Positions 181 to 7,168 of a DNA stretch of 14,221 bases are shown piece after piece; the first letter of the stretch is position 1, and the number at the start of each line of letters is the position of its first letter. The notes below the pieces were generated by a model. That model searched no databases. It saw nothing but the letters and a program-made list of their open reading frames with translations, and was not told the DNA's origin. A program made the translations under genes and the position numbers. This DNA is from a virus, in the UHGV virus genome UHGV-0217885; one strand, given 5' to 3'.

Positions 181-282
181 ATGTTATCTCTCGTTTATGA
201 AAATCGGTGGACGACGATTTTTCTGCTGATTTTTGCCAGCATGTGCCTCAATAGTGTTATTGGCGCATTACACGCCCAGTAA
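181..282 (+). CDS. Small hydrophobic protein, 33 aa (MLSLVYENRWTTIFLLIFASMCLNSVIGALHAQ), predicted single transmembrane helix
   Basis: ATG at 181 and TAA at 280..282. AAGGA at 165..169 lies about 11 nt upstream of the ATG. An intrinsic terminator follows about 20 nt downstream. Too short to appear in the supplied ORF track; translated manually. Confidence 0.3.
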   Translation: MLSLVYENRWTTIFLLIFASMCLNSVIGALHAQ

Positions 283-301
283 TCGCGACAAAACCAGCCC
301 C

Positions 302-329
302 AAACCGGCACCGTGAATGCCGGTTTTTT
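302..329 (+). terminator. Rho-independent terminator (GC-rich hairpin followed by a T-run)
   Basis: Left arm AAACCGGCA (302..310), loop CCGTGAA (311..317), right arm TGCCGGTTT (318..326), T-run 324..329. Confidence 0.55.
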
Positions 330-488
330 ATGCCATTTTTCCGCGATTTCCCCGTTTTTAGCCGTGCATGCAACAGGTGCATGCTTTTGCATTCGCAGGG
401 GTTGCCCGTTCTGACCGTGCGCCGCCAGAGCTGGCGCGGATCCCGAGTGTTCATGCAACTGCATTAAAACCGCCCCGTAAAGCGGGCA

Positions 489-507
489 GGCGTGGCGGGG
501 AAAGCAT
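489..507. other. cos: cos site (cosN-like 19-nt cohesive-end sequence) of a P2/186-family phage
   Basis: GGCGTGGCGGGGAAAGCAT at 489..507 matches the P2 cohesive end GGCGAGGCGGGGAAAGCAC, as I recall it, at 17 of 19 positions, and the following TGCGCGC is also shared. Orientation relative to the minus-strand portal gene matches the P2 left end. Confidence 0.7.
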
Positions 508-523
508 TGCGCGCAGCACACAC

Positions 524-553
524 TTGCAATTTGATATTTTTGGTGTAAAAAAT
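524..553 (+). promoter_or_regulatory. Weak candidate promoter for the cargo operon
   Basis: TTGCAA at 524..529 followed about 16 to 18 bp later by an A/T-rich -10-like stretch (TAAAAA/AAAAAT, 546..553). Poor match to consensus; position only. Confidence 0.2.
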
Positions 554-615
554 CGGTGTCAATGAGTAGAAGATGAAAAATAATAACCAAAGGTTACTAA
601 ATCAAGGATGTGCCG

Positions 616-1434
616 ATGAAAGTTAGCTATGACGTTGTCATCAAAAGTGGTGATCAAGAAGTTGATATGGAGTATGGCCTTGATACCCTCTCTGGAACGG
701 CTGAGGTGACATGCATACTAGCAGAGGCAATACTCAGAAAAAAAATTATTAAGCGCCGCACTCATGTTAACCCTGCGCGAGCGGTTCTCAAACAAAGCTT
801 TAAAAGTTCTTATGGTCAAAACTTCGACTTGATTGTTAATGAGCCGGAATTAGCTGCCGAATTAAAAAAAATGACCCGTTCTGTGTTCTCGGAAGTCATG
901 GGGTATTTTATTTCTGAATCTCTATATCTGGAAACTAAGGAGCTATCTCCAAAAGCTGCAGGAATTATTGAGGAGCTTGAGGAAATTGAAGATGAACTTA
1001 TTGATCGTATCAGACAACCTTTGGTAAGGATGCATAGGATAAATCTTCAAAAAAACTTTGATGTTGAACTTAACTATAAAAAACCTGCTGGAAAACAAAG
1101 AATAGCAAAGTTAGACACAATGACTGCTACAAACTTGACACAATCAAAAATAAAGCCCGGTCAAGTTAATATTAACGCAGTTATTACTCGATTTAATGCG
1201 AGAACTGGAAATGGTAGGTTAGTTATCGAAGGTGAAGATGATACAGTAGCCTTTGGTTTTTACATGCCTTTAAAGGCTATACCCGCCGCTCAAAAAAGAT
1301 TGGTCTCATTAAATTTACACAATAATAATGGCAGGCAAGATAACTACACATATCTAAAACTTACTGTTAGCAAAGTTGTAGTAAAAAGTGGTGATGTGGT
1401 GAAATATCTAATCCGTATGGTTGAAACTGTATGA
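616..1434 (+). CDS. Hypothetical cargo protein, 272 aa, no transmembrane segment, family not recognised; candidate sensor or partner of the downstream membrane protein
   Basis: ORF-track entry 610..1434 begins at a GTG. The ATG at 616 is preferred because AAGGA at 604..608 sits 7 nt upstream. AT-rich, unlike the phage structural genes. Stop overlaps the next start (ATGA at 1431..1434). Confidence 0.8.
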   Translation: MKVSYDVVIKSGDQEVDMEYGLDTLSGTAEVTCILAEAILRKKIIKRRTHVNPARAVLKQSFKSSYGQNFDLIVNEPELAAELKKMTRSVFSEVMGYFISESLYLETKELSPKAAGIIEELEEIEDELIDRIRQPLVRMHRINLQKNFDVELNYKKPAGKQRIAKLDTMTATNLTQSKIKPGQVNINAVITRFNARTGNGRLVIEGEDDTVAFGFYMPLKAIPAAQKRLVSLNLHNNNGRQDNYTYLKLTVSKVVVKSGDVVKYLIRMVETV

Positions 1435-2156
1435 GAAAGGTGTTGCTGTCTTCGGCTGGCGTGATTGTAGCTGTGTGCGCCTTGTATTACTTCAACTTCG
1501 GAGTAAACGGACATTTATCCAGCAAGACTGATGTTTGGGCGCAGTTTGGTGATTATTTGGGTGGTGTCGTCAACCCTATACTTTCATTTATTACAATTTA
1601 CCTCCTTATAAATTCAATAAAACTTCAAAGGGAGGCTAATTCCAGCCTGATCGATGAAGTAAAAAGGCAAGAATCTTTAGAAGAGTATAAAAAATTTGAA
1701 GTGAGATTTTTCCATTTGGTTGAATGTCAGGATTCTAACTTTGAAAGGTTTTGTGTTCAAGTTGGTGATATTGATGGACAAACTGACGGGGTGGTCGAAG
1801 AATTTACAAGTGGTGCAGCCGTAACTTATCTTGAAGATAATATTGTAATTTTAGTTAAAGCCAAGGTAAAAAAAGAGGTAATAACAAAGTGGTTAAGTGA
1901 AGTGGATGCTAATGATTGCATTTTTTCAGTGGTGCGTCGCTTTTATTTGATTGTGAAGTTGATAGATAATTGCGGGGTTGAACGGGAAGATTATTATGAA
2001 ACATTAGTTAACTTAACTGACATAAAAATAATATCTTTAGTTGCAATGGCTTGTACATACTACGAGTGGGATATCGTAAAGTATATCCATGACAGTAAAA
2101 TACTTGAACGAGATGGAGTTAAAGAGTTTGTTTCGCAAATATCCACTCACGATTGA
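1431..2156 (+). CDS. Hypothetical membrane protein, 241 aa, two N-terminal transmembrane helices plus a soluble C-terminal domain of about 175 aa; candidate effector
   Basis: Hydrophobic segments VLLSSAGVIVAVCALYYFNF and LGGVVNPILSFITIYLLINSI near the N-terminus. AT-rich. Start overlaps the upstream stop, implying translational coupling. Converges on the portal gene. Confidence 0.8.
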   Translation: MRKVLLSSAGVIVAVCALYYFNFGVNGHLSSKTDVWAQFGDYLGGVVNPILSFITIYLLINSIKLQREANSSLIDEVKRQESLEEYKKFEVRFFHLVECQDSNFERFCVQVGDIDGQTDGVVEEFTSGAAVTYLEDNIVILVKAKVKKEVITKWLSEVDANDCIFSVVRRFYLIVKLIDNCGVEREDYYETLVNLTDIKIISLVAMACTYYEWDIVKYIHDSKILERDGVKEFVSQISTHD

Positions 2157-2157
2157 G

Positions 2158-2176
2158 AGCCGCCATGCTGGCGGCT
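2158..2176. terminator. Palindromic hairpin between the convergent cargo operon and portal gene; possible bidirectional terminator
   Basis: AGCCGCCA (2158..2165), loop TGC, TGGCGGCT (2169..2176). No clear U-tract on either strand, so terminator function is uncertain. Confidence 0.3.
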
Positions 2177-2186
2177 AGAGTGGTGA

Positions 2187-3233
2187 TTATTCCGGATTAT
2201 CGAGGGTGTACTCTTTGAACCTGATGACCTCCATGCCGAGCCAGTCGTTTACCTCCCTGAACCTGTCCTGTAGCGGCGACAGCTCATTGCGCACAAATAC
2301 CTTTGCCACCTTCTCAACGTCACCGAGTGAACCGATATTCTCGGGCTTGCCGCCCATGAGCTGGAACGGTACGCGGTGCGCGTCCATCAGGTCGGCGGCG
2401 CTGGCTTTCTTAATGTTGAAAAAGTCATCCTTTGTGGCGACCTCGCTCAGTGGCACGATTTTGATGCCGTCCGGTTTTCCGCCGGGGGCGTAGAAAAACA
2501 GGTTCTTAAAGTTGCCGAGTCCCTTCGAGTTACGCATCGCCTCGCGCAGCGATTCGACGTCGGTCGCACTTTGCGCCGGGTCAGTCACATACATGATGTA
2601 GCCTGCGTGCGCGCCGTTCTGATAATACTTGCGGCGGAACAGCGTCGCGGATTCATTCAGCCAAGCGGAATTAAGCGCGCTGAGATATTCCGGCAGACCG
2701 TAAATCTCCTGATTAATGTCGGGCTCCAGCAGGTGAAACACGGTATCAGGCGCGAACTCGTGCGGCTGGGTGAAGTTTTCCACAAACCAGAAAATCGAAT
2801 CGTCGACTCCGCGTCGGGTGTATTTGGCTGGCGAGGCCAGCAGTTTGATTAACTGGCCGGTGACGCTGTGGCGCTGCTCAAGAAAGGCGTTACCGAACAC
2901 CAGATAATCGAGCGCAAAGCGGCTGAAATCCTGACGGGATAACAACGGGTGCGGAATGTAGGTGCTCGCGAGCACGTTACGCTTAACATAAATTGGCGAG
3001 CTGTGATGCACGGCAGAGCGCAGGCTCTTTGCCAGCCCTGAGAAGCTGACCGGCGGCTCGTACCATTTGCCGTTACTGATGCATTCGACGTAATCCAGAA
3101 TGTCGCGCTTATCGAGTACCGGCACCGGCTCGCCGAAGGTGAACGCTGTCGTTTTTGGCGGTGCGCTGGCGGTCAGTTGTTGTGGTTTGCTGGCCTTTTG
3201 TGCGTTGGCTTTACGGGATTTTTGTTTACCCAT
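2187..3233 (-). CDS. Q: Portal protein (P2 gpQ family), 348 aa
   Basis: Length and sequence resemble P2 gpQ (about 344 aa) as recalled. Lies immediately downstream of P on the minus strand, as in P2. Confidence 0.93.
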   Translation of the reverse strand: MGKQKSRKANAQKASKPQQLTASAPPKTTAFTFGEPVPVLDKRDILDYVECISNGKWYEPPVSFSGLAKSLRSAVHHSSPIYVKRNVLASTYIPHPLLSRQDFSRFALDYLVFGNAFLEQRHSVTGQLIKLLASPAKYTRRGVDDSIFWFVENFTQPHEFAPDTVFHLLEPDINQEIYGLPEYLSALNSAWLNESATLFRRKYYQNGAHAGYIMYVTDPAQSATDVESLREAMRNSKGLGNFKNLFFYAPGGKPDGIKIVPLSEVATKDDFFNIKKASAADLMDAHRVPFQLMGGKPENIGSLGDVEKVAKVFVRNELSPLQDRFREVNDWLGMEVIRFKEYTLDNPE

Positions 3234-3234
3234 T

Positions 3235-5004
3235 TTAGTTGAACTCCAGAATAGATTTAGGCTGCATGCCGCTACCGGCAGAAAGCGGTTCGTTTAACAG
3301 GGCGTGCATGGTCGCCCATGCGATATCGGCGTGGCTGGCTTCCTCGGTGCGGCTGGCCTCATAGGTGGCGCTGCGCCCGCTGCTAGTCATGGTTTTGCGG
3401 ATGGACATAAACGACTGCGTGACGTCGGTTGCTCCGGCGTCGTACTCCAGACAGCCACGGCGAATGGTGTCTTTCGCCTTGAGTACCATTGCGGTTTTCA
3501 TTTCAGGTGTGTAACGGATGCCGCGTGCCGCCGGGTAAAATGAGCGCACCAGCTGGAACACGCCGAGACCGAGGCCGGTTGCGTCAATGCCGATGTATTC
3601 AACGTTGTATTTCTCGGTCAGCTTGCGGATGCCCTCTGCCTGTGCTGCAAAATCCATGCCCTTCCACTGGTGGCGCTCCAGCATGCGGAACTTGCCACCA
3701 GAGACCACCGGCGGCGCGAGCACGACGCACCCGGCACTGTCGCCGGTGTGTGACGGGTCGTAGCCAATCCAGACAGGACGAGAGCCGAACGGATGGTCGG
3801 CGAACGGGGCAAAGTCCTCCCATTCCTCCATCACATCGACCATGCAGCGCTGCAGCTCCTCGAACGGGAATACCGACGCTTTATCGTCGACAAACTCGCA
3901 CATAAACAGGTTCTTAAAGTCCTCATCACTGTTTTCGCGTTTGAGCTGGTCGAGGTCGAACAGGGTGCAGCCACCCGCAAGGGCGTCCTCAATGGTGACA
4001 ATCTGCCGCCACTGGCCATCGTCGCAGAGCTGGCCACCGGCGAGCGCGCTGTGACTGATGTCGATTTCGATGCGGTCGGCAATCCGGCTGCGCCCCTTGT
4101 TGAACAGCTCGCCAGACCAGAAGGGGTAAGCGCCGTGCGCCAGCGTGGAAGGTGTCGAAAAATAGGTCGAGCGCAGGTGCTTTTGCGAGGCCATGCCCGA
4201 GGCGACTTTGCGCAGTTTCTGAAAATTCGGGATCCAGAATATTTCATCGACATACAGATCGCCGTTATGGCTCTGCGCGGTGTTGGAATTGGTACCGAGA
4301 AAAATCAGTTTTGCGCCGTTGTTACCGATGACAATCGGGTCGCCAGTCAGGTCAACGTCGACCAGTCGCGCAAACTGGATGATGTATTCGCGGAACACGT
4401 AAGCCTGCGTTTTACTGGCTGATAAAAATATCTGGTTATGGCCGGTTTTGAGTGCGCGCAGCAGTGCCTCGCGGGAGAAATAGAATGTCGCGCCAATCTG
4501 GCGGGATTTGAGAATGTCACGAATACGGTGCTCCAGTCCTGCGCGGTACCACTGCAACTGGTACTCGAAAGACTGGTCGAAAAATAATTCCTCTAGTTTA
4601 TCGATAGACTCGTCGCTGAAAAAATTCTTTTTCGGCTTTTTGCGCTCCCCTTTGTTGCGGTTGGCGACGTTGGGGTTAAGGTCGGCTTCGTTGCCGGTCT
4701 GGCTGTAGCGGTTGACTCGCGCCAACCGTTCAATCTGCCGTCCGAGCAGGTCAATCTCTTTGAAATCACCCCCTGTCTTTTGCGGCTTGGCGATGAGCTG
4801 AATCAGCCTAGCCTCAAGGCTGCTTTCAACGCGGGAAATCGGCGCGATGCCGTCCCAGCCGTCGCGCTGCTTCCAGCTCTGCACGGTCGGGCGCTTGACC
4901 TGCAGCATTTCGGCAATCTGTGGCACGGAAAAACCCTGCCAGTAAAGCAGCGATGCCTGCCGTCGCGGGTCATGCAACAAGGTTGTATCTGTGGAAATGG
5001 TCAT
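3235..5004 (-). CDS. P: Terminase large (ATPase) subunit (P2 gpP family), 589 aa
   Basis: N-terminus MTISTDTTLLHDPRRQASLLYWQGFSVPQIAEMLQ closely matches recalled P2 gpP (about 590 aa). Divergent from O across a 165-bp intergenic region. Confidence 0.95.
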   Translation of the reverse strand: MTISTDTTLLHDPRRQASLLYWQGFSVPQIAEMLQVKRPTVQSWKQRDGWDGIAPISRVESSLEARLIQLIAKPQKTGGDFKEIDLLGRQIERLARVNRYSQTGNEADLNPNVANRNKGERKKPKKNFFSDESIDKLEELFFDQSFEYQLQWYRAGLEHRIRDILKSRQIGATFYFSREALLRALKTGHNQIFLSASKTQAYVFREYIIQFARLVDVDLTGDPIVIGNNGAKLIFLGTNSNTAQSHNGDLYVDEIFWIPNFQKLRKVASGMASQKHLRSTYFSTPSTLAHGAYPFWSGELFNKGRSRIADRIEIDISHSALAGGQLCDDGQWRQIVTIEDALAGGCTLFDLDQLKRENSDEDFKNLFMCEFVDDKASVFPFEELQRCMVDVMEEWEDFAPFADHPFGSRPVWIGYDPSHTGDSAGCVVLAPPVVSGGKFRMLERHQWKGMDFAAQAEGIRKLTEKYNVEYIGIDATGLGLGVFQLVRSFYPAARGIRYTPEMKTAMVLKAKDTIRRGCLEYDAGATDVTQSFMSIRKTMTSSGRSATYEASRTEEASHADIAWATMHALLNEPLSAGSGMQPKSILEFN

Positions 5005-5169
5005 TGATGCCTCGCCGTAGTGGATTCAGGGCAAGGCTACTTAATGGCCGTCAGTGATTCGCTAAGGTGCTGTTGTGTGGGCGGTTGTCCAGTCGTCATT
5101 GGTGGTCTGGCGTGTCCTGAGTCTGGAAACTGGCGGTGACCAGTAACCTTAACCTCAGGACTCCTGACA
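5005..5169. promoter_or_regulatory. Divergent late-promoter region between P and O
   Basis: Inferred from the conserved P2 arrangement, where activator-dependent late promoters drive P-Q leftward and O-N-M-L rightward. I did not find a perfect TGT-N12-ACA activator box; only a TGT-rich segment near 5067..5084. Confidence 0.4.
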
Positions 5170-6024
5170 ATGGCAAAAAAAGTCTCAAAATTCTTTCGCA
5201 TCGGCGTCGAGGGTGACACCTGCGACGGCCGCATTATCAGCGGCAACGATATTCAGGAAATGGCCGAATCGTTTGACCCTCGCGTCTACGGTTGCCGCAT
5301 TAACCTTGAGCATATTCGCGGTCTCTTTCCTGATGGCGACTTCAAACGCTTAGGCGATGTGGTTGAACTGAAAGCTGAAATAATTGACGACGATTCTGCG
5401 CTTAACGGCAAATGGGCGCTGTTCGCCAGAATCACCCCAACCGACGACCTGATTGCGATGAATAAAAAATTGCAGAAGGTCTACACCTCAATGGAAATTC
5501 AGCCGAATTTTGCCAATACCGGCAAATGCTACCTCGTCGGCCTTGCTGTCACCGATGACCCGGCGAGCCTCGGCACTGAATACCTCGAATTCTGCCGCAA
5601 CGCGAAGCACAACCCGCTGCAGCGCTTTAAGGCCAACCCTGAAAACGTCTTTTCCGCTGCCACTCTGGCCGAGCTGGAGTTTGAAGACGTTCCCGACACG
5701 GTGCTCAACAGCCTGGCCGATAAGGTGAAAGCCATTTTCAGCCGTAAGCAGGTCAGCGACGATGCGCGCCTGAATGATGTGCATGAAGCGGTGACCACCG
5801 TCAGCGAACATGTGCAAACCAACCTGACAAAACAGGACGAGCGCCTTTCCGCTATGGAAACCGCGTTTGCCACTTTCAAACAGGAACTGACCGGCAAGGT
5901 TGAAGAAACCAGCCAGGCATTTTCCGACCTGAAAACCACCCTCGATAAAACCGAAAGTTTCAGCCAGCCGCGACGCACGAAAGCCAGCGGCGGTGGTGGC
6001 GATGAGCTGCTGACCGACTGCTGA
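5170..6024 (+). CDS. O: Capsid scaffolding protein (P2 gpO family), 284 aa
   Basis: Same length as P2 gpO (284 aa); N-terminus MAKKVSKFFRIGVEGDTCDGR; position between P and N. Confidence 0.93.
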   Translation: MAKKVSKFFRIGVEGDTCDGRIISGNDIQEMAESFDPRVYGCRINLEHIRGLFPDGDFKRLGDVVELKAEIIDDDSALNGKWALFARITPTDDLIAMNKKLQKVYTSMEIQPNFANTGKCYLVGLAVTDDPASLGTEYLEFCRNAKHNPLQRFKANPENVFSAATLAELEFEDVPDTVLNSLADKVKAIFSRKQVSDDARLNDVHEAVTTVSEHVQTNLTKQDERLSAMETAFATFKQELTGKVEETSQAFSDLKTTLDKTESFSQPRRTKASGGGGDELLTDC

Positions 6025-6100
6025 TAAACCGCAGACCAGAAACCGGGCGGCATCCCCGCCCGATGCAGTGACTAACCGATAAATTCAAACAGGAAATACT

Positions 6101-7168
6101 ATGCGCCCGGATACCCGTTTTAAGTTCAATGCCTATCTGACCCGCGTCGCTGAGCTGAACGGCATCAGCACTGATGACGTCAGTAAAAAATTCACCGTCG
6201 AGCCGTCCGTCACGCAAACACTGATGAACAAAGTGCAGGAGTCATCCGCGTTTCTGCAGACGATTAATATTCTGCCGGTCGCAGAAATGAAGGGTGAGAA
6301 AATCGGCGTCGGTGTGACCGGTACTATCGCCAGCACGACCGACACCTCGGGCGATGATGAGCGTAAGACCGCCGACTTCACCGCGCTTGAGTCCAACAAG
6401 TACGAGTGCGACCAAATTAATTTTGACTTCCATCTGAAATATAAAACCCTCGACCTGTGGGCGCGTTTTCAGGACTTCCAGCGCCGCATCCGCGACGCCA
6501 TTGTCAAACGTCAGGCACTGGATTTCATCATGGCCGGTTTTAACGGTACCACCCGCGCCGCCACCTCTGACCGCACCAAAAATCCGATGCTGCAGGATGT
6601 GGCCGTCGGCTGGCTGCAGAAATACCGCAATGAAGCCCCGACGCGCGTGATGAGCAACATCACCGACGCTGACGGTAAGGTCGTTTCAGCAGTGATTCGT
6701 GTAGGTCGAAACGGCGACTATGAGAACCTCGACGCGCTGGTGATGGACGCCACCAACAACCTGATTGACGAGGTTTATCAGGATGACCCGAAACTCGTTG
6801 CCATCGTTGGCCGTAAGCTGCTAGCCGACAAATATTTCCCGCTGGTGAACAAGCCGCAGGAAAACAGCGAGGCGCTTGCGGCAGATATCATCATCAGCCA
6901 GAAGCGAATCGGCAACCTGCCTGCTGTGCGTGTGCCGTACTTCCCGGCGAATGCCGTGTTAGTGACCACGCTGGAAAACCTCTCTATCTATTTCATGGAT
7001 GAGAGCCACCGCCGCAGCATTGATGAAAACCCGAAAAAAGACCGCGTTGAAAACTACGAGTCGATGAATATCGACTATGTGGTCGAGGCGTATGCCGCCG
7101 GGTGCCTGCTGGAAAACATCACCCTGGGCGATTTCACCGCACCTGCAGCACCGGAAAGCGGAGCCTAA
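6101..7168 (+). CDS. N: Major capsid protein (P2 gpN family), 355 aa
   Basis: Strong similarity throughout to recalled P2 gpN (357 aa), e.g. RFKFNAYL, ECDQINFDF, AVGWLQKYRNEAP, SQKRIGNLPAVRVPYFPA. Confidence 0.95.
   Translation: MRPDTRFKFNAYLTRVAELNGISTDDVSKKFTVEPSVTQTLMNKVQESSAFLQTINILPVAEMKGEKIGVGVTGTIASTTDTSGDDERKTADFTALESNKYECDQINFDFHLKYKTLDLWARFQDFQRRIRDAIVKRQALDFIMAGFNGTTRAATSDRTKNPMLQDVAVGWLQKYRNEAPTRVMSNITDADGKVVSAVIRVGRNGDYENLDALVMDATNNLIDEVYQDDPKLVAIVGRKLLADKYFPLVNKPQENSEALAADIIISQKRIGNLPAVRVPYFPANAVLVTTLENLSIYFMDESHRRSIDENPKKDRVENYESMNIDYVVEAYAAGCLLENITLGDFTAPAAPESGA

Follow-up and report, generated by a model that had tools for sequence, protein, structure and literature searches.

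What are two AT-rich genes doing between the packaging site and the portal gene of a P2-like prophage? The question is raised by the virus genome UHGV-0217885, of which a stretch of 14,221 nucleotides (the window) was analysed. The window covers that end of an E. coli prophage of the 186/P2 type (Peduoviridae) which serves packaging and morphogenesis. An initial annotation of this DNA had noticed two genes, here gene 1 and gene 2, between a cos-like site and the portal gene Q, and had suggested a defence or exclusion module. Our analysis leads to a reading which we hold to be moderately probable: that the pair is a self-contained two-gene abortive-infection or exclusion module, in which gene 2 would supply an AbiC-like membrane protein and gene 1 its cytosolic OB-fold sensor partner. 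The location in a hotspot, the variability of the slot, the presence in a second hotspot, the autonomy and mobility of the pair, the AbiC kinship of gene 2 and the OB fold of gene 1 all count for this reading.

The cargo has clean borders. Homology to the Yersinia phage vB_YpM_MDG94-186 stops at 514 and restarts at 2158 (blastn), and the 1,643-bp cassette stands in place of 141 bp in this phage, which has an empty site. The conserved phage backbone extends past cos to 514 (..TTGCGCGC), the left border lies eight bases past cos in every element compared in the alignment, and the junctions were also read by blastn against phage vB_EcoM-613R3. Sharp borders had been placed near 600 and 2160; the sharpness holds, and the exact borders, 514/2158, are sharper than estimated. 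The composition had been judged AT-rich by eye, and calculation agrees: the guanine-plus-cytosine (GC) content is 36.6% in 515..2157, against 56.2% in the portal and terminase genes and 57.2% in the remaining phage genes. The cos site is likewise borne out, since its pattern of 18 specified bases matches once in the window with a chance expectation of 0, and the same cos sequence lies just 5' of the cargo in related P2-like loci. Neither terminal direct nor terminal inverted repeats were found around the cassette. Transposon-like ends were rejected for this reason; recombination between conserved flanking sequences more probably brought about the swap.

Is the cassette part of the core phage? 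Among 5,426 complete E. coli genomes, 14 carry it with 99.5-100% identity, each time on the chromosome and adjoining a phage portal gene, and it is absent from close relatives. The region is accessory cargo, not core phage, as the initial annotation had held. In E. coli S3 (NZ_CP010228), which has the identical locus, the gene order is CI, CII, Fil, the replication endonuclease gpA, a small open reading frame (ORF), DinI, small ORFs, cos, gene 1, gene 2, portal, terminase and capsid genes. In this P2-like prophage the locus thus falls within the stretch from gpA to gpQ, the portal gene, and adjoins cos, and its cargo differs among otherwise similar phages. This is the P2 hotspot of Rousset et al. 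2022 (PMC9122126), the gpA-to-gpQ region adjoining cos, several of whose cargoes were shown to protect from phages. The locus had been compared to old/tin of P2, which is apt as regards the hotspot and not as regards the genes, as old and tin are located across cos from the cassette.

The cos-to-portal interval is short in relatives and variable, as had been proposed. It holds 141 bp in the empty-site phage and a different cargo of 1.29 kb in phage vB_EcoM-613R3, and further E. coli prophages have the pair there as an allele of 57% identity. Diverged alleles of the pair occupy the slot in P2-like prophages of E. coli, Citrobacter, Pectobacterium and Enterobacter.

Two of these phages carry further genes in the hotspot. 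The slot of vB_EcoM-613R3 (ON470592.1; positions 3161-4449 of locus L001) holds an opposite-strand gene for a 334-aa hypothetical protein and a 61-aa ORF; the 334-aa protein has no Pfam match, and the two together may be another hotspot cargo. In vB_YpM_MDG94-186 the gpA-to-cos part holds an orf97-like gene (672-1403 of L043), and the record note states that its expression from a plasmid blocks 186 infection. This would place exclusion-type cargo on both sides of cos in this phage group.

Do the two genes belong together, and do they depend on this phage? Their translational coupling through an ATGA overlap at 1431..1434 had been proposed, and both ORFs and the overlap are real. A species scan, with one genome per species, gave 26 loci in Gamma- and Betaproteobacteria. 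A gene 2 homologue lies directly downstream of gene 1 on the same strand in 25 of the 26, with a gap of -26 to +3 nucleotides, and at the 26th the contig ends right after gene 1. The pairwise identities of both proteins are correlated (r=0.90, Mantel p<=0.0005), and the pair has 33-45% GC in all hosts, also in hosts of 60-68% GC. It lies between delta and int in a P4-like satellite (L038), in an islet adjoining ligA with a resolvase gene in Pseudomonas, in an integrase islet in Dickeya, in an integrative mobilisable element in Pseudoduganella, beside an Mrr-type nuclease gene and ParDE in Marinomonas, and in a prophage-like region in Aeromonas. It also occurs on a 6.1-kb ColE1-type plasmid, of which it makes up about a quarter, on IncX1/X3 conjugative plasmids, and in the unrelated Klebsiella phage Kp4865-4. 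The pair is an autonomous, horizontally mobile unit.

On the IncX1/X3 plasmid NZ_CP024261.1 (1993-7004 of L050) a homologous pair sits at 4986-6541, flanked by two DinQ-like genes for type I toxins and with partition and recombinase genes nearby, in what is a maintenance and accessory region of the plasmid. Enterobacter roggenkampii CP099308.1 (9001-13458 of L047) holds a degraded P2-like prophage from which the portal-to-tail genes are gone while the pair is kept, now abutting gpU, gpD and ogr. Because the pair was kept in a prophage that lost these genes, its retention by selection or addiction is suggested. In Azotobacter vinelandii CA (NC_021149.1; 8001-9553 of L031) the pair looks pseudogenised: gene 1 is truncated, with a match to no more than residues 1-215, and two ORFs take the place of an intact gene 2.

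What kind of membrane protein is gene 2? The initial annotation gave it two N-terminal transmembrane helices and a soluble C-terminal domain, and hydropathy and AlphaFold concur. The hydrophobic segments lie at about residues 3-25 and 42-63, and the AlphaFold model (mean predicted local distance difference test, pLDDT, of 86) has helices at 2-24 and 33-104. Invariant residues of the second helix are W36, F39-G40-D41, G44-G45 and P49, in the motif W-x-x-FGD-x-x-GG-x-x-NP. The N-terminal Lys and Arg residues and the short loop suggest an N-in, C-in topology, with a predicted periplasmic loop of only ~10 residues. The median isoelectric point (pI) of the C-domain is 4.75 across the family, and no informative solved relative of this domain was found. 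Scans of both proteins against Pfam, NCBIfam and PADLOC gave no significant named family, with matches only to PHROGs of unknown function.

The link to AbiC came from a putAbiC protein that shares the WGQFGDYIGGVLNP motif and is listed in supplementary tables of Rousset et al. 2022. This E. coli protein matches Pfam PF16872 at 1e-18, PADLOC AbiC at 9e-6 and PADLOC AbiP at 3e-4, and hhalign relates it to the gene 2 family with a probability of 98.9%. For the membrane module of gene 2 and the N-terminus of the putAbiC protein the value is 99.1% (E 4e-19). The C-domain aligns with a putAbiC C-domain profile built from 6 sequences at 88.9% (E 2.4e-6, 144 columns), including the RRFYLIvKLID core, and the HMMER alignments of gene 2 to putAbiC-positive proteins span the C-domain. 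A profile search of 1.84 billion representatives returned 6,213 relatives of gene 2 at E<=1e-3, 94 of them close; putAbiC scored above the Pfam threshold in 7 of the 10 remote profile matches tested, and 21 of 23 remote relatives have the FGDxxGG motif. Judged by these alignments, the membrane module is certainly related to AbiC-like proteins and the C-domain probably so. Because both parts align by profile and most of the remote matches tested are putAbiC-positive, gene 2 is, at the level of sequence, a divergent and remote relative of putAbiC/AbiC-like proteins.

Gene 1 had been described as a soluble protein of 272 aa, and no segment in it is as hydrophobic as the membrane segments of gene 2. 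It starts with the ATG at 616, the GTG at 610 being a mechanical ORF start only, and its stop codon is at 1432..1434. The AlphaFold model (pLDDT 90.2) has two domains. The C-terminal one (residues 178-271 in the model) is a barrel of five strands in which a helix separates strands 3 and 4, which is the layout of an OB fold, and bears the invariant motif T-R-F-N-x-x-T-G-N-G-R-L together with F213, K263 and Y264. This barrel is basic throughout the family (median pI 9.6), so that across both families a basic OB domain accompanies an acidic gene 2 C-domain. Foldseek against the Protein Data Bank (PDB) ranked cold-shock domains at a probability of 0.96-0.97, none at E<=0.001, and the top structural match of the OB domain binds metal, not nucleic acid. 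The basic pI and the invariant Arg, Lys, Phe and Tyr are indirect support for nucleic-acid binding. Judged from the model, the OB domain may be one of those whose ligand is single-stranded nucleic acid or a protein.

The N-domain of gene 1 has invariant residues that include M18, G27, E37, F62, S65, G67 and H140; neither a sequence search of solved structures nor Foldseek on the PDB found a solved relative of it, and the sequence search of solved structures gave no informative relative for either protein as a whole. Pfam places DUF7946 (PF25678) at 12.9 bits and DUF7947 (PF25679) at 14.5 bits in gene 1, below the cut-off of 27 and in the right N-to-C order. Among 50 members of the family DUF7947 is matched in 37 (best 6e-5) and DUF7946 in 15 (best 2e-6), and some homologues bear a precomputed PF25678 assignment. 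A protein search gave 457 homologue clusters as close family members. The earlier statement that gene 1 belongs to no recognised family thus holds for named families, while both proteins fall into sizeable ones (PHROG 13337 and 8999, with the weak DUF7946/DUF7947 matches).

Two further observations concern gene 1. A 21-nucleotide direct repeat, 86% identical, at 634-654 and 1375-1395 encodes VV(I/V)KSGD near both termini of the protein. The soluble protein of P4 system #30, which has a weak DUF7946 match (E 0.018), was considered as a relative and rejected at an hhalign probability of 4.7%; this system ("HP + 4TM", Table S1B) was tested and found inactive by Rousset et al. 2022 (PMC9122126).

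Has the pair been seen before? The initial annotation called it uncharacterised, which does not hold in the sense of undescribed. Table S5A of Rousset et al. 2022 (PMC9122126) lists WP_073507269 and WP_073507268 among P2 loci as "hypothetical", and homologous pairs make up P2 system #77 in Table S5B (50 loci, "2 TM in protein 1") and P4-hotspot system #31 in Table S1B (49 loci). Neither system was given a domain, a name or a test (PMC9122126). Like the window pair, systems #77 and #31 join a protein with two transmembrane helices to a protein of ~270 aa with SYGQNF and TGNGRL motifs, and they occupy the same kind of hotspot (#77 that of P2, #31 that of P4); the window allele is ~46-48% identical to their representatives. 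In the literature no paper was found that mentions the accessions, the PHROG identifiers or the DUF names. The present analysis adds the kinship with AbiC, the OB fold and the occurrence on plasmids and in further bacterial classes; the pair itself was already catalogued, unnamed.

How far does this carry a role in defence? We infer defence from context and remote homology. The idea of a soluble and a membrane protein acting as sensor and effector has gained in that the pair is mobile hotspot cargo with AbiC kinship, and has found no counterpart among the validated defence models. A 2026 preprint on the P2/P4 hotspots validated other unannotated P4 loci and found that 6 of 8 randomly chosen uncharacterised loci protect, which gives this pair a higher prior.

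A number of results weigh against a defensive role or against the AbiC link. The Pfam putAbiC model matches neither gene 2 nor any of the 42 family members at E<=1, PADLOC gives gene 2 no AbiC or AbiP match and solely a weak match to the transmembrane part of ZorB, and no PADLOC model matches gene 1. The PADLOC check that had been proposed for the locus returned no system-level match. With a single putAbiC sequence in place of the profile, hhalign gave the gene 2 C-domain 3%, which is not significant. Lactococcal AbiC and AbiP work as single genes, which makes the role of gene 1 a conjecture. In Chromobacterium the pair lies between housekeeping genes with no other defence gene, and several chromosomal contexts are alike in this. 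The P2 hotspot also carries non-defence cargo such as partition systems and toxins (PMC9122126). Rousset et al. 2022 did not have the pair among the systems that they cloned and tested, their Table S2 holds no protein bearing the motif, and no validated system described in the 2026 P2/P4 preprint resembles it.

If the pair is a two-gene abortive-infection or exclusion module, it might work as follows. A single transcript, which in the lysogen probably starts at a promoter of the cassette itself, would yield both proteins at a constant ratio, and these would associate in a resting complex. On infection by another phage, the gene 1 protein would recognise a nucleic acid or protein made by that phage, and the gene 2 protein would then be released or activated. 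It would compromise the membrane by ion leak or depolarisation, or otherwise arrest the cell before the invader finishes its cycle. We infer that the lysogen expresses the genes and that the proteins interact physically, and likewise the trigger, the effect on the membrane and the protection from phages as such; the invariant Asp, the likeness to MotB/ZorB and the opposite charges of the OB and gene 2 C-domains suggest where the mechanistic details may lie. The most specific form of the proposal is that the pair is a new class of two-component abortive-infection system, in which the OB-fold protein, on detecting a protein or single-stranded nucleic acid of the phage, frees an AbiC-like protein whose Asp-containing hairpin assembles into a proton or ion leak. 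In this full form we consider the proposal unlikely.

Other explanations draw on part of the same evidence. The pair could be an addiction module, similar to a toxin-antitoxin system, in which gene 2 would be a membrane toxin curbed by the co-translated gene 1 and the carrier prophage, satellite or plasmid would be stabilised. The share of the pair in the small ColE1-type plasmid, its place amid partition and type I toxin genes on IncX plasmids and its survival in the Enterobacter prophage without portal-to-tail genes would all fit, and the order of the genes, the one for the soluble protein first and the one for the membrane protein second, resembles antitoxin-toxin operons, as does their conserved translational coupling. 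Yet no domain of a known toxin or antitoxin turned up in Pfam and family scans of both families, both proteins exceed the size that is typical of type II pairs, the Azotobacter pair was pseudogenised without obvious consequence, and the enrichment in two defence-validated hotspots points elsewhere. We give addiction a minor though real chance of being the explanation. Addiction and defence are not exclusive, as many abortive-infection systems are toxin-antitoxin-like.

A role outside defence, in host physiology or in the life cycle of the carrier (packaging, lysis timing, membrane stress or transport, for example), seems quite unlikely. No validated defence model is matched, the hotspot also carries non-defence genes and some chromosomal contexts consist of housekeeping genes only, but most 186/P2 relatives are viable phages without the pair, the plasmids, satellites and islands that carry it have no common life cycle, and Pfam, family and structure searches detected no enzyme, transporter or lysis domain. 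The slimmest chance among the explanations weighed here goes to superinfection exclusion at the envelope, where the membrane protein would stop the entry of phage or conjugative DNA without killing the cell and gene 1 would be an accessory. A prophage-encoded inner-membrane protein, cargo adjoining cos and presence on conjugative plasmids would suit it. It leaves the obligate cytosolic OB-fold partner and its co-divergence unexplained, however; the short periplasmic loop speaks against it, and gene 2 is kin to the AbiC/AbiP group, where PdpSau leaves adsorption unaffected, with phage DNA inside the cell, and AbiP acts at DNA replication and early-transcript switch-off (PMC13064643, PMC10127798).

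The features of the cassette and its borders are collected in the table.

Table. Features of the cargo cassette and its flanks in the window (positions count from the first letter of the window)
Feature	Position	Strand	Basis and remarks
cos cohesive-end sequence GGCGTGGCGGGGAAAGCAT	489..507	+	186/P2-type phage; pattern match
AT-rich cargo cassette, 1,643 bp	515..2157	.	blastn junctions, left-junction alignment, composition
Sigma-70-like promoter candidate (GTGTCA, 17-nucleotide spacer, AATAAT)	556..584	+	upstream of gene 1, within cassette; consensus scan 9/12
Shine-Dalgarno-like AAGGA	604..608	+	7 nucleotides before gene 1 ATG; read from sequence
Gene 1, 272-aa soluble protein (WP_073507269; PHROG 13337)	616..1434	+	ORF and translation, RefSeq, PHROG match E 7e-113
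Gene 1 N-terminal alpha/beta domain, residues 1-177	616..1146	+	AlphaFold secondary structure; weakly DUF7946-like
Gene 1 C-terminal OB-fold domain (predicted), residues 178-272	1147..1431	+	basic; weakly DUF7947-like
Gene 2, 241-aa predicted inner-membrane protein (WP_073507268; PHROG 8999)	1431..2156	+	ORF and translation, PHROG match E 7e-83
Gene 2 two-helix membrane module, ~residues 5-62	1443..1616	+	hydropathy, invariant columns, hhalign; common to putAbiC proteins
Gene 2 acidic all-helical C-terminal domain, residues 85-241	1683..2153	+	predicted cytoplasmic; remote putAbiC relation; core motif RRFYLIvKLID
Backbone hairpin AGCCGCCA-TGC-TGGCGGCT	2158..2176	.	between two convergent genes; first conserved phage sequence after cassette
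Portal gene (P2 Q / 186 W)	2187..3233	-	right border of hotspot; Pfam Phage_portal E 5e-13; RefSeq and phage-record annotation

The backbone hairpin folds at -15.3 kcal/mol (z -2.6), and the record of phage 186 annotates a portal-gene terminator beneath the match that resumes at 2158. The promoter candidate is a consensus match, not functional evidence. A search of the region for structured RNA or a known RNA family found none, with one sub-threshold chance match. RefSeq annotates small hypothetical ORFs across cos at 195-464 (minus strand) and 368-565 (plus strand) of the window, and a 131-aa ORF at 195..590 matches phrog_6595 (E 3e-14); these small ORFs at 195-590 run across the packaging site and are possibly not genuine genes. 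To the left of the window start, E. coli S3 encodes a 143-aa hypothetical protein on the minus strand between DinI and cos (4984-5415 of L002). It has no Pfam or PADLOC match, is kept in prophages with either allele of the pair, and is listed alongside the pair in the table of Rousset et al.

What would follow if the pair protects? It would add a widespread defence module of Gamma- and Betaproteobacteria, present on prophages, satellites, plasmids and islands, and it would tie the mechanistically opaque Gram-positive AbiC/AbiP group to a tractable E. coli system. With the OB-fold sensing part and the membrane part on separate polypeptides, trigger and effector would be genetically separable. 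If the ion-leak reading is true, the pair would offer the first mechanistic handle on the AbiC/putAbiC superfamily, which has >6,000 representative clusters and whose mode of action has, to our knowledge, been unknown since 1992. Should the pair prove inactive against phages, it would join the accessory gene pairs that lack an explanation. The handful of bases separating cos from the portal terminator is itself a place, inside the P2 hotspot, where cargo is exchanged.

Which known systems does the pair resemble? RexAB of lambda is thought to consist of a sensor and a membrane-depolarising effector. Like the pair, it is prophage-encoded and joins a soluble protein of ~270 aa to a small membrane protein, but the membrane protein of RexAB is a four-helix channel protein, whereas gene 2 has two transmembrane helices and a large cytoplasmic domain. 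RexA is absent among the solved-structure matches to gene 1, and the PADLOC models give no match to gene 1 either, so the likeness to RexAB is one of layout and not of homology.

The second helix of gene 2 also recalls the Zorya protein ZorB and its relative MotB. It matches the N-terminal transmembrane part of PADLOC ZorB3 in 36 of 42 family members, and the match takes in the invariant membrane-embedded Asp, but it covers only profile positions 8-59 of 215 with weak E-values (best 3e-5). Unlike ZorB/MotB, gene 2 has no OmpA-like peptidoglycan-binding domain, its C-domain being all-helical, and the cassette holds no MotA/ZorA partner. Homology of gene 2 to ZorB/MotB was rejected, as the match is confined to the transmembrane helix; the likeness is a hint of ion handling, not of membership.

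A close parallel is with the lactococcal proteins AbiC, which has two transmembrane helices, and AbiP, which has one; a 2026 review places them in one structural group of unknown mechanism (PMC13064643). AbiP binds nucleic acid, is triggered by a phage tail protein, and acts at DNA replication and the switch-off of early transcripts (PMC13064643). PdpSau, an AbiP-like protein of an S. aureus prophage, is membrane-anchored, has a reported OB-like region and depolarises infected cells, with adsorption unaffected and phage DNA inside the cell (PMC10127798). Gene 2 has the putAbiC-type two-helix module with the WGQFGDxxGGxxNP motif, and the joining of an anchor and an OB fold in the pair recalls AbiP and PdpSau, where a membrane anchor goes together with a region that binds nucleic acid or is OB-like. 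The known members of this group are single-gene and Gram-positive, whereas here a second protein is conserved throughout, gene 2 homologues following gene 1 at all 25 informative loci, and a separate polypeptide bears the OB fold. By this analogy the arrangement would be the AbiP/PdpSau design split over two polypeptides.

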